From a virus: 64,000 nucleotides of DNA. Positions 4,084 through 32,763 of this stretch are shown here, piece by piece. The notes beneath the pieces are model-generated. The model was not told the origin of the DNA, made no database searches, and was given only the letters and a program-made list of their open reading frames with translations. Both the position numbers and the translations under genes were made by a program. The stretch is from UHGV virus genome UHGV-0123226. One strand, written 5' to 3'. Within the stretch, counting starts at the first letter, position 1, and each line of letters opens with the position of its first letter.

Positions 4084-4575
4084 ATGACGTTGGTACCAGA
4101 AATAGATTACAAAAAAACAAAAGATAAAGTTCGTAGATTATTAAAAAATTGTCGAAGCCTACAACGAATGAGTGGTGTAAAAGTACATTTGCAATCTCCT
4201 ATATTATCTGATATGCCGCGACACCATAGTAACAGAAATAATGCTGAGGAAAGTATGGTTCATTTATTTAGATACACGTCTAAGTTATCAATAGAGGCAG
4301 CTAGACAACGTAGAGAGCAAGTCAGAGCGATAGAGCATACGTTAAAATCGTTGCCTGATGTCTCGAGAGAAATATTATACTATTCATATTGTGTACCGAA
4401 TCCATACAGCATGGCTAAGTTGAGTAGAACAATAAAAGTATATCGTGAAAACGAGTTTGGCCAAGTGGAAGAAATAAGCTATAGCATTAAAAATATTGAA
4501 AAGCTGAAAGACAATGCGTTAATTGAATTTGCGGAAGCCTACCATTACGAAAATTTGATAGTTCAAAAAAATTAG
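4084..4575 (+). CDS. arpU: ArpU-family phage late-gene transcriptional regulator
   Basis: 163 aa. Lies between the early genes and the packaging genes, the usual position of ArpU or RinA. Sequence features typical of ArpU-family proteins (LLKNCRSLQRM, REILYYSYC). Confidence 0.65.
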   Translation: MTLVPEIDYKKTKDKVRRLLKNCRSLQRMSGVKVHLQSPILSDMPRHHSNRNNAEESMVHLFRYTSKLSIEAARQRREQVRAIEHTLKSLPDVSREILYYSYCVPNPYSMAKLSRTIKVYRENEFGQVEEISYSIKNIEKLKDNALIEFAEAYHYENLIVQKN

Positions 4576-4736
4576 GGTTTTTTTAGGGATTATTTAGGGT
4601 TTTTAACTCGAAATCCGTTGTATTATGGTAGTATCAAAAGTCAAAGAAATGGACACAGTACACACTTTCTCGTTTAGTCACCGTTCACTTTGTCTTTCGA
4701 TGGTCACTTGCAGACTTACGTTCTCAATAAAATGAA

Positions 4737-4762
4737 GTGAGGTGAATAACCTCCTCTTTTTT
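4737..4762 (+). terminator. weak rho-independent terminator downstream of arpU
   Basis: GAGG..CCTCCTC followed by TTTTTT. Confidence 0.35.
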
Positions 4763-5167
4763 CTACAGGTTTGCAAGGGACACAAATAGTTGCTAGGGAT
4801 GCAGTAGTAACTACCTGATTCATACTAGTCGAGGTTAGGTATATTGCTCTATCCCATCATATGACGATAAGAACATTAACCAGATCTCTGCGGCAGCTGC
4901 TTACGCACGAGAGCAATTCCTAAACTCATAGAGTAGCAGCTAGGTACGTTTAGGATAAACTTAATCAATTGTTTTTGCTGGTGTTTGATTGATTGGTCAC
5001 TGTGGTGGAATATAGACCTTACAAGGTGCAAATCCTTGCCAGTGACATAATCATTTTAGCCGTGAAAGTCTGCGAAAGCTACATCCTGAAGGGAAAACAT
5101 TCTGACGAGAGTGTGTAAAGGTTAATTTGATTTATTAGCAATTGCTAGAAGGTCGCTCCTTCTGGTT

Positions 5168-5240
5168 TGGCGTGTAGCATTGTGGTAATGCAACTGATTA
5201 CGTGTGAGATAAGATGCGGGTTCGAATCCTGTCACGCCAA
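5168..5240 (+). ncRNA. tRNA-like element (acceptor stem, D-arm and canonical T-arm GGTTCGAATCC; no anticodon stem foldable by hand)
   Basis: GGCGTG/CACGCC acceptor pairing, T8, D-stem GCAT/ATGC with a GG loop, and a T-arm GCGGG-TTCGAAT-CCTGT. No 5-bp anticodon stem and no encoded CCA. Followed by a GTAGC-ata-GCTAC hairpin and a T-run. Confidence 0.3.
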
Positions 5241-5360
5241 TAGGTAGCATAGCTACTTAAATAAATTAGGAAACGTCAATAGATGTTTCTATCCTTCACG
5301 AGAGGCATCCACTTGCTGGGTGTCTCTTTTTATACATAAAATTACATAGGAGGTGAGGTC

Positions 5361-6134
5361 ATGGCAAAGTACACAGAGTGGCTGACTGACGAAGGGTTAA
5401 TTAAAATCGAAGGGTGGGCGCGAGATGGCCTCATCGATAAGCAGATAGCCCAAAATATCGGGGTAGCTTATTCAACTTTCAGAGAATGGGTAAAAAAATT
5501 TCCAGCACTTTCGGCATCCTTAAAAAGAGGAAAAGAAGTTGTTGATAGACAAGTTGAAAATGCTTTGTTTAAAAGTGCTATAGGATACGAATACACTGAA
5601 ATTACTAAAGAAAGAATGGCAGATAACGGGCAAAAGAAACGACATAATGGTGAATCATCTTTGACAGAAGAAGAGTGGGAAACAGCACTTGCTTATTTTA
5701 ATTACAGTTGTGCATATTGTGGTAATTCAGATGAGATGACTAAAGACCATCTTGACCCATTAAAAAATGGCGGCGAGTTGACTTTTTCAAATGTAGTTCC
5801 TGCATGTCGTTCTTGTAATTCAAGCAAAAAGGATCATCAATGGCTTTCGTGGTATCAAAACCAAGACTTTTACGACAGATACAAAGCAAATAAAATCACT
5901 GATTATATATCATTCGTGTTAAGCTTTCCGAAAAAAGAAGAAAACACAGAGCTAGTTGTTACAAAAGAAATAACTAAATTGGTAGCCCCTAATCCAACTG
6001 CGGCTATTTTCTGGTTAAAAAACAGAAAACCAGACAAATGGAGAGATCGAAGAGAAACCGAGGTTTCAGGATTGCTTAATATTTCCGATGCAGCAGTCGA
6101 AATCGAGCAATTTTTCGAGGATGATTCTACATGA
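5361..6134 (+). CDS. terS: terminase small subunit with an embedded HNH endonuclease domain
   Basis: N-terminal HTH region (MAKYTEWLTDEGLIKIEGWARDGL...STFREWVKK) and C-terminal AIFWLKNRKPDKWRDRRE are typical of TerS. A roughly 100-aa insert carries CAYCGN..DHLDPLKNGG..PACRSCNSSK, an HNH zinc-finger nuclease motif. Overlaps the terL start. Confidence 0.7.
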   Translation: MAKYTEWLTDEGLIKIEGWARDGLIDKQIAQNIGVAYSTFREWVKKFPALSASLKRGKEVVDRQVENALFKSAIGYEYTEITKERMADNGQKKRHNGESSLTEEEWETALAYFNYSCAYCGNSDEMTKDHLDPLKNGGELTFSNVVPACRSCNSSKKDHQWLSWYQNQDFYDRYKANKITDYISFVLSFPKKEENTELVVTKEITKLVAPNPTAAIFWLKNRKPDKWRDRRETEVSGLLNISDAAVEIEQFFEDDST

Positions 6135-32653: not shown

Positions 32654-32763
32654 TTGATGATTGCTGTATTGAAACAAAAAGAGCCTACCTCGTCCGCCAA
32701 CGAAGTAAGCTGCTAAACAAAAAATATACAAGTAAATAATAACACGGAAAGTAGGAATTTAAA

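Follow-up and report, generated by a model that had tools for sequence, protein, structure and literature searches.

A degenerate tRNA as a possible RNA-processing signal in the late-operon leader of Enterococcus faecalis temperate phages

Introduction

Transfer RNA (tRNA) genes carried by phages are usually explained by codon supply or, in more recent work, by escape from anticodon nucleases. A different use of the tRNA shape is punctuation within longer transcripts, known from the mitochondrial punctuation model, the tRNA-tufB co-transcripts of Escherichia coli and the production of mascRNA from MALAT1. In this work, we describe a tRNA homologue located between the late regulator gene arpU and the small terminase gene terS of UHGV virus genome UHGV-0123226, of which a stretch of 64,000 nucleotides (nt), hereafter the window, was analysed. 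The window is a prophage of Enterococcus faecalis that resembles phiFL2A, and its positions 4572-5360 are the untranslated leader of the ArpU-controlled late operon (packaging, morphogenesis and lysis). The reading we favor, with confidence somewhat above even, is that this tRNA acts as RNA punctuation, a cleavage signal by which the messenger RNA (mRNA) of the packaging genes acquires its start, rather than as a working tRNA. We favor it because the tRNA shape is kept whereas the anticodon drifts, because the tRNA occupies a fixed slot with flanking hairpins, and because a mapped terS 5' end abuts the tRNA.

This end was mapped in phiFL2A, the model phage for ArpU, a regulator that has been studied experimentally (PMC3753634). 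Three 7-nt repeats of phiFL2A bind ArpU and are needed for activation of terS (Quiles-Puchalt et al. 2013, PMC3753634). By 5' rapid amplification of cDNA ends (RACE), a single terS 5' end was found, a G located 118 bp upstream of the ATG, which the authors read as the ArpU-dependent start (PMC3753634). The presence of a tRNA at this place is already known at the level of annotation: in GenBank, the homologue in phage VEsP-1 is annotated as tRNA-Arg-TCG, and the genome note of phage IME197 counts two tRNAs.

Results

A tRNA without a normal anticodon arm

The element under study is the following:

5168 to 5240, plus strand: degenerate tRNA gene, tRNA-Arg(ACG)-like, with no encoded CCA (ARAGORN, Rfam RF00005)

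An earlier note on this DNA had folded these positions by eye into an acceptor stem, a T8, a D arm and a T arm, and had failed to find an anticodon stem. All of the parts that it named are present where it placed them. The acceptor stem (5168-5174/5233-5239) has 7 bp and is followed by U8 (5175); the D arm GCAT-TGTGGTA-ATGC, with a 4-bp stem, lies at 5177-5191 and the T arm GCGGG-TTCGAAT-CCTGT, with a 5-bp stem and the loop UUCGAAU, at 5216-5232; G18 and G19 are in place in the D loop. ARAGORN and the Rfam tRNA model, by which the note had proposed that the element be checked, both recognized it: ARAGORN called a tRNA-Arg(ACG) at 5167-5241, and 5168-5240 scored 42.8 bits (E=2e-7) against RF00005, for which the gathering score is 29, a match far outside chance. 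It is the sole tRNA across the window. Judged by its sequence, the element is a genuine, if degenerate, member of the tRNA family.

The anticodon arm is where it departs most visibly from a normal tRNA. The stem (27-31/39-43, ACUGA/UGAGA) reads A.A, C-G, U-A, G.G and A-U, with only three of the five positions paired and A27.A43 and G30.G40 mismatched, and Infernal treated the 18-nt arm as a local-end skip when scoring, which bears out the failure of the note to see a stem here. The anticodon loop, UUACGUG, keeps U33 but has U37 in place of a purine, so that the arm as a whole lacks the normal combination of a 5-bp stem, a 7-nt loop, U33 and a purine at position 37. Position 14 (5181) is a U instead of the near-universal A, and the U8-A14 tertiary pair is therefore absent. 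The discriminator A5240 is followed by the trailer UAGG, with no CCA, and an unconstrained minimum free energy fold gave no cloverleaf. The parts that make a tRNA L-shaped and are recognized by RNase P, RNase Z and the CCA-adding enzyme, which are the acceptor stem, the T arm, the D stem and the G18 G19 elbow, are all retained.

With lowered thresholds or introns allowed, ARAGORN returned many implausible calls, among which only a weak one obtained at 80% thresholds (4976-5046, discussed below) was retained. Over 4300-5600, the tRNA alone was above threshold among Rfam matches at E<=10. Sub-threshold matches to RT-3, TLS-PK5, FMN, STnc50 and SpF41 were taken as chance; the one to RT-3 (4455-4580, plus strand, 24.4 vs 40.5 bits) spans the arpU 3' end and the first ArpU box, and is probably of this kind.

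The loss of the normal anticodon arm makes a decoding role doubtful. A working tRNA might provide extra decoding of Arg (CGN) codons, or replace host tRNAs cut by an anticodon-nuclease defence, in which case the odd arm would confer resistance to cleavage. Phage tRNAs with changes in the anticodon loop have in fact been proposed to evade anticodon nucleases (PMC10264068). It also counts for this explanation that the element passes ARAGORN and Rfam and that the VEsP-1 homologue bears its annotation as tRNA-Arg. The window copy, however, combines G30.G40, A27.A43, a pyrimidine at position 37 and U14 with a predicted fold that is not a cloverleaf; it fits decoding poorly, and we consider decoding by this copy unlikely.

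Shape is kept and the anticodon drifts among related phages

A pattern search of IMG/VR with the acceptor stem and T arm returned 47 further loci. The family to which the window's tRNA belongs has two forms, with the acceptor and T arms in common and the D and anticodon arms different. Form A, the type of the window, has the anticodon ACG, TCG or TTG, U14 in all copies, and either G (G.G mismatch) or U (U.G pair) at position 30. Form B, the type of IME197, has a canonical D arm, A14, and the anticodon TTC or TTT or an 8-nt loop. This 8-nt loop, TTTTTTAA, was seen in the tRNAs of loci L012, L081 and L093.

Over 18 distinct variants, 99% of the cells in the acceptor, D and T stems are paired, compared with 33-59% when each strand is matched to a slid partner. 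The D stem shows two fully compensatory pairs between the forms, and all other stem changes keep pairing. Since the stems stay paired across variants whereas the anticodon drifts, the L-shape is constrained and the anticodon is not. The earlier note had proposed a comparison with related phages for conserved structure, and such structure is found there, the block and the tRNA both being conserved.

The place of the tRNA could be followed with an invariant 20-mer, TTTTTCTACAGGTTTGCAAG (4758-4777), located within a conserved leader core upstream of the tRNA. A scan of IMG/VR with this 20-mer gave at least 117 loci, reduced to 90 distinct downstream sequences, and in about 70 of these 90 distinct leaders the core is followed by a tRNA (Trp, Asn, Arg, Glu or Lys). 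A canonical tRNA-Trp(CCA) begins 6 nt past the core and a canonical tRNA-Asn(GTT), the type of phiFL1 and phiEf11, 11 nt past it, while tRNAs of the window's family lie at 229-590 nt. Because a gap of 6-11 nt leaves no room for a promoter, the Trp and Asn tRNAs must, judging from this arrangement, be transcribed through the leader. Rfam tRNA scores by class are 70.2 bits for Asn, 61-68 for Trp, 56.6-65.1 for form B and 42.7-46 for form A. The suggestion of the earlier note that the element is a decayed phage tRNA agrees with this picture, the window copy (42.8 bits) being a tRNA homologue that sits in the slot of canonical sister tRNAs, is among the lowest-scoring of them and belongs to the most aberrant form.

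Some loci carry other arrangements. In locus L076, the tRNA-Trp body has the anticodon CGA instead of CCA. In loci L057, L066 and L090, the tRNA is replaced by a consensus sigma-A promoter (TTGACC, 17 nt, TATAAT), a small open reading frame (ORF) and a terminator directly after the leader core, an insertion that looks like the moron type. On one phage contig, the leader core occurs twice, about 670 nt apart (loci L072 and L078).

The slot as a whole has bearing on decoding as well. Its identities (Lys UUU, Glu UUC, Gln UUG, Arg and Asn) are the classic targets of anticodon nucleases, and the commonest form-A variant has U30, which makes a U.G pair and brings the stem to four of five pairs. The synthetases for Lys, Glu, Gln, Arg and Asn rely mainly on the anticodon, so that a change of anticodon could switch identity cleanly. 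Slot tRNAs that are canonical, as well as the U30 variant, may decode. Anticodon changes among near-identical bodies, such as the 8-nt loop or the Trp body with CGA, are nevertheless unexpected under codon-specific selection, and compensation of codon bias cannot explain the Trp class, as Trp has a single codon. In view of both sets of observations, we hold a working decoding tRNA to be a rather unlikely explanation.

Conserved hairpins flank the tRNA

Three features of the window directly adjoin or follow the tRNA:

5145 to 5165, plus strand: 8-bp hairpin ending 2 nt before tRNA position 1 (-10.4 kcal/mol, z=-3.9)
5241 to 5259, plus strand: 8-bp hairpin UAGGUAGC-AUA-GCUACUUA, starting at the first base after the discriminator (-7.9 kcal/mol, z=-4.5)
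5274 to 5281, plus strand: conserved motif CGTCAATA, kept in every tRNA class at about 33 nt past the tRNA

CCA is encoded in none of the slot tRNAs, and each has a helix 2-7 nt upstream; in the window this is the hairpin at 5145-5165, whose stem is invariant in eight aligned phages. In all classes, the first base of the trailer starts the same 8-bp hairpin, UARGURGC-loop-GCURCUUA, with pair-preserving changes, followed by AAAUAA...CGUCAAUA and then usually by a strong hairpin and a U-run. The small hairpin that the earlier note reported after the tRNA is the one at 5241-5259; the T-run that it added is instead an A/T-rich stretch, UUAAAUAAAUU, and a hairpin with a U-run is found farther downstream, at 5300-5331.

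A second tRNA, clearly decayed, is present upstream:

4996 to 5046, plus strand: second tRNA remnant, class II, Leu-like (acceptor stem, D-arm-like and T-arm-like parts)

It consists of a 7-bp acceptor stem GTCACTG/CAGTGAC (4996-5002/5040-5046), a D-arm-like part UGGUGGAAUAUAGACC and a T-arm-like part CAAGG-UGCAAAU-CCUUG, and is devoid of anticodon and variable arms. The inverted repeat GTCACTG...CAGTGAC that had been noted earlier is this acceptor stem; the repeat is real, but the position given for it, about 5008-5060, was displaced. At the homologous place, about 25 nt after the leader motif, locus L129 has GTCACTGTGGCGGAATAGGTAGACGC, which resembles the 5' half of a tRNA-Leu. The remnant is overlapped by the weak tRNA-like call of ARAGORN at 4976-5046, and the Rfam tRNA model did not detect it. 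With an internally deleted second tRNA upstream of the called one, the leader seems to have gained tRNA cassettes, and lost them to decay, more than once.

The called tRNA could itself be a functionless pseudogene, decaying in a freely recombining phage module of E. faecalis. The clearly decayed second tRNA 120 nt upstream, the drift of the anticodon, the 19 of 90 leaders that have no tRNA and the mosaic recombinants seen in the leader are all compatible with such a history. Decay without function is difficult to reconcile, however, with three stems that are 99% paired in 18 variants, each stem substitution keeping its pair, or with flanking hairpins kept in all tRNA classes. Moreover, the window and phiFL3 have 97% identity in the tRNA, as opposed to 61% in the spacer at 5047-5167 and 45% beyond 5290. 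We regard a mere pseudogene as improbable.

The mapped terS 5' end and the ArpU boxes

In phiFL2A (our locus L001), the terS ATG is at 2243 and the mapped G at 2125, whereas the 3' strand of the tRNA acceptor stem occupies 2115-2121 and the discriminator is A2122. This places the mapped G 3 nt past the discriminator, at base three of the conserved hairpin, equivalent to G5243 of the window. It lies about 640 bp from the ArpU boxes, with no sigma-A -10 element ahead of it. A position drawn at random from the 785-nt block would have about a 1% chance of lying so close (3 nt or less) to the tRNA 3' end. The RACE was made with a Roche kit, which does not discriminate between triphosphate and monophosphate 5' ends, and the paper makes no mention of a tRNA (PMC3753634). 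Our literature search found no E. faecalis transcriptome paper reporting ends in this region. The idea of the earlier note that the element may be a target of RNase P or RNase Z is supported by deduction only, from the end 3 nt past the discriminator and from the CCA-less, hairpin-flanked tRNAs.

Whether this G is a start or a cleavage product depends on the regulatory elements at the two ends of the leader:

4572 to 4604, plus strand: three direct TTAGGG boxes (4572-4577, 4583-4588 and 4594-4599; 11-nt phase), presumed ArpU operator
4621 to 4626, plus strand: -10-like hexamer TATTAT, then GGTAGTATC; candidate ArpU-dependent late promoter (comparative position)
5300 to 5331, plus strand: intrinsic-terminator-like 12-bp hairpin (5300-5328) and U-run in the terS 5' untranslated region (-16.9 kcal/mol, z=-4.8)

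The regulatory block begins at 4572, where the first of the three phased repeats overlaps the arpU stop codon. The TTAGGG boxes have the position and phase of the three TTGGCGG repeats of phiFL2A, and box sequence varies with the regulator allele. The locus has the complete organization of an ArpU late promoter, namely an ArpU-family gene, three phased repeats right after it and terS downstream, and the boxes are presumably the operator of the window's ArpU. About 20 nt past the last box, four box classes have a TAWWAT hexamer, as does a second ArpU lineage with only 37% identity; the hexamer is TATTAT in the window and TAATAT in phiFL2A, with GGTAGTRTC following. Late transcription would accordingly start near 4633. 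The hexamer at 4621-4626 was assigned by comparative position only, and a simple sigma-70 scan of the block found no promoter and fewer matches than in shuffled sequences. Staphylococcal repeat regions joined to phiFL2A intergenic DNA still activate a reporter (PMC3753634), which fits a promoter beside the boxes.

The second ArpU lineage (loci L156-L229), whose protein is 37% identical to that of the window, has TGGCGG x3 boxes and TATTAT-GGTAGTGTCGAAAG in common. Its leader is different, contains nested inverted repeats (ATAGACAGCAGC...GTTGCTGTCTAT) and usually lacks a tRNA.

Alternatively, ArpU-dependent transcription may really start at this G, 118 bp ahead of terS, activated from about 640 bp away in the way proposed for RinA in phage 80alpha, the tRNA being then either the 3' end of the early (arpU) transcript or silent, and its adjacency a coincidence. 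This is the authors' own reading of the end. A terminator between arpU and terS was inferred by them because read-through from Pcad was absent without ArpU (PMC3753634), and it matches the hairpin at 4736-4762. Our main reason for caution is the terS 5' end of the staphylococcal phage 80alpha, which lies >155 bp from the RinA boxes and resists Terminator exonuclease (PMC3152322), a precedent for activation at a distance. Against a distant start, there is neither a -10 nor a -35 element upstream of G5243, where the DNA belongs to the tRNA and is not the same in the Trp, Asn and Arg classes, and the start would fall inside the stem of a conserved hairpin. It would also leave unexplained the -10-like hexamer conserved about 20 nt after the boxes in all lineages and would require a coincidence with the tRNA end of about 1% chance, while the terminator-like hairpin at 5300-5331 would still lie downstream. 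A distant start seems to us unlikely.

This last hairpin lies 27 nt before the terS ATG, and a comparable hairpin with a T-run follows the tRNA cassette in most relatives. It is downstream of every candidate late start and yet late expression occurs, from which it follows that late transcripts are read through or antiterminated. Transcription that depends on ArpU seems to get past a terminator deduced to block other transcripts.

Genes, remaining leader structures and origin of the block

The remaining features of the locus are the following:

4084 to 4575, plus strand: arpU, late transcriptional regulator (Ltr family I), 163 amino acids (aa) (TIGR01637 phage_arpU, BLASTP)
4703 to 4781, plus strand: leader core, with a 13-bp stem 4703-4715/4769-4781, an inner hairpin 4736-4756 and a U-run 4757-4762 (44 leaders)
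4782 to 5167, plus strand: conserved non-coding spacer, 386 nt (comparison, folding)
5348 to 5356, plus strand: terS ribosome-binding site AGGAGGTGA (sequence inspection)
5361 to 6134, plus strand: terS (small terminase) with an inserted HNH domain, 257 aa (identity to phiFL2A gp34, Pfam HNH)

The window's ArpU scored 70.2 bits against TIGR01637 (cut-off 43.1) and is 37% identical to that of phiFL2A (BLASTP, E=5e-32). Its terS is 81-90% identical to phiFL2A gp34 over aa 1-84 and 200-257. The in-frame insertion in terS, of about 115 aa, has a Pfam HNH match at aa 117-158 and is weakly similar to the HNH regions of IscB and Cas9d in NCBIfam. Outside this locus, a match to Ref55 (Enterococcus sRNA 55, a small RNA) was found in Rfam at 32675-32728 on the minus strand (77.6 bits vs a gathering score of 43).

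No ORF of 60 aa or more had been reported in 4576-5360, and we came to the same result, the longest ORF overlapping this region on either strand having 51 aa. The small ORFs within the block (41-51 aa) were dropped, as they have no ribosome-binding site and one of them overlaps the tRNA on the opposite strand.

The stem of the leader core is paired in 86.7% of cells on 44 distinct leaders, as opposed to 38-49% with a slid partner. Two of its pairs switch both sides between allele classes (AU/UA 19:14 and CG/UA 21:18), and in some recombinants the pairing is broken. The spacer is nearly invariant, its ORF-free first 214 nt (4782-4995) being 95-100% identical in most relatives, and its plus strand folds better than shuffled sequences (z=-2.99; 0 of 100 shuffles as good), whereas the minus strand gives z=-0.99. 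It has no Rfam family match at E<=10, GOLLD and ROOL included. The 20 sequences usable for covariation analysis of the spacer are too alike, and all changes are single-sided and mostly compatible with G.U pairing.

Every match to the block was an Enterococcus phage. The block is 100% identical to "Enterococcus phage 1_EfsPF36" and 97% to phiFL2A; the part from 4621 to about 5265 is 83-95% identical to phiFL2B, VEsP-1, IME197 and phiFL3A/B, and the sub-block 4621-4783 is also common to phiFL1A-C and phiEf11. A motif search of genome contigs with a 20-nt leader motif gave seven matches in unrelated metagenome-assembled genomes, a chance level that is uninformative about species range. The genes that follow the block vary: terS in phiFL2, a small ORF and a ParB-methyltransferase in phiFL3, and other ORFs in IME197, whose genome sequence was opened arbitrarily. 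Segment identities are accordingly mosaic, with 27-63% for arpU and 21-38% for terS around the nearly invariant stretch 4782-4995. As a near-identical block precedes differing downstream packaging genes, it appears to travel with the early/late boundary and its late regulator, separately from the packaging module and terminase.

This distribution bears on the proposal, made in the earlier note, that the block is a DNA site, either cos or pac for packaging or a remnant attP-like core. The block does adjoin terS on its upstream side, the usual place of cos in many Gram-positive phages, and terS has an HNH domain, a feature associated with cos packaging. A packaging site would be expected to be inherited with the terminase, but phages whose packaging modules are unrelated have 4621 to about 5265 conserved, other phages that possess the same arpU lack it, and only 5291-5360 co-varies with terS. 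The inverted repeat proposed as packaging signal belongs, as shown above, to the acceptor stem of the internally deleted Leu-like tRNA. No attachment-site repeat was seen, and the attP-like core finds no support; a look for data on the genome termini returned none. We consider a DNA site of any of these kinds highly improbable.

Discussion

The observations above can be joined in the following scheme, in which the tRNA is a cutting signal. ArpU would bind the three TTAGGG boxes just past its own gene, as demonstrated for the homologous boxes of phiFL2A. Transcription would begin beside the boxes, near 4633, and run through the whole leader, so that leader, tRNA and terS would form one transcript. 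A cut by RNase P at the 5' end of the tRNA would leave an upstream leader RNA ending in a hairpin, and a cut by RNase Z after the discriminator A5240 would make the terS mRNA start at the hairpin 5241-5259. This 5' hairpin may act in a cap-like manner, shielding the terS mRNA from 5' exonucleases. The end at G5243 would result if two weakly paired bases were trimmed off or if the cut were slightly displaced. Thus, starting from the identity of the tRNA, its conservation, the structures around it and the published function of the homologous boxes, we infer the co-transcription, both cleavages and the protective role of the hairpins.

Several points weigh against punctuation. The mapped 5' end comes from a method blind to the difference between primary and processed ends, and it is 3 nt, not 1 nt, past the discriminator, so that trimming or an imprecise cut must be assumed. 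It could also be a stop of the reverse transcriptase at the folded tRNA. A hairpin that starts at trailer position 1 might hinder RNase Z. Transcripts from about 4633 must pass two terminator-like hairpins. By the precedent of 80alpha, regulators of this kind may truly act at a distance, and the G of phiFL2A could then be a real start. The tRNA is not required for late expression, since 19 of the 90 distinct leaders and 73 of the 80 loci of the second ArpU lineage have none. Finally, constraint need not be the whole reason for the high identity of the block, part of which could come from recent exchange between phages of E. faecalis.

Extending the punctuation reading, we may speculate that the hairpin-tRNA-hairpin unit is an RNA-processing insulator heading the late operon in E. 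faecalis temperate phages. The published "start" of phiFL2A would be an RNase Z cut and true initiation would occur about 610 nt upstream, beside the boxes, with a Q-like read-through of the two terminator-like hairpins; the excised leader of about 530 nt (including 4782-5167) would be a new structured phage non-coding RNA. We put this forward as a tentative proposal, unlikely to hold in full.

A tRNA shape kept without its anticodon in a fixed place of the late leader points to a third use of phage tRNAs, as processing signals that set and protect mRNA ends. The accepted late-promoter start of phiFL2A coincides with the 3' end of a tRNA, which brings the published result into question. If the mapped end is a cleavage product, the real promoter would lie beside the ArpU boxes and the puzzle of distant activation would be removed, while the question would arise of how late transcription passes the terminators.

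The closest described systems each share part of these features. Like the tRNA genes of T4, T5, mycobacteriophages, VEsP-1 and IME197, the element has tRNA homology that both ARAGORN and Rfam detect, and is in this case the single tRNA of a temperate siphovirus. It differs from them in the defective anticodon stem, in the aberrant positions 14 and 37 and in an anticodon that is not conserved among near-identical copies, as well as in its fixed place in the late-operon leader and its conserved flanking hairpins.

GOLLD and ROOL are large non-coding RNAs of Lactobacillales prophages that often adjoin tRNAs. The spacer resembles them in being a highly conserved, ORF-free and apparently structured stretch of several hundred nt adjoining a tRNA in the prophage of a lactic-acid bacterium, but its lack of a family match at E<=10 means that, on present evidence, it is not a member of either.

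With the late control of lambda (pR'-tR' and Q antitermination), the locus shares a DNA site for the regulator at the promoter, a short structured leader carrying a hairpin and a U-run, and late genes located past one or more terminators. The likeness to Q is one of analogy only, any modification of RNA polymerase by ArpU being hypothetical.

The late-promoter regions of the Ltr regulators (RinA, ArpU and LtrC; Ferrer 2011; Quiles-Puchalt 2013) are alike in having three phased repeats distal to the regulator gene, an intergenic terminator, and terS as the first late gene. The boxes of the window are TTAGGG as opposed to TTGGCGG, and the papers on Ltr regions mention no tRNA, no conserved RNA-like leader of about 600 nt and no start abutting a tRNA.

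As in tRNA punctuation elsewhere, RNase P and RNase Z would be recruited by a tRNA shape embedded in a longer RNA, and their cuts would define the ends of the neighboring RNAs, with the difference that processing is here deduced from a single published 5' end. Our literature search turned up no account of a tRNA acting in this way in the late-operon leader of a phage. Compared with all of these systems, what is new in the present locus is the degenerate anticodon arm within a preserved L-shape, the drift of the anticodon across dozens of phages, the fixed, hairpin-flanked slot in the late leader and the coincidence of this slot with a published start.

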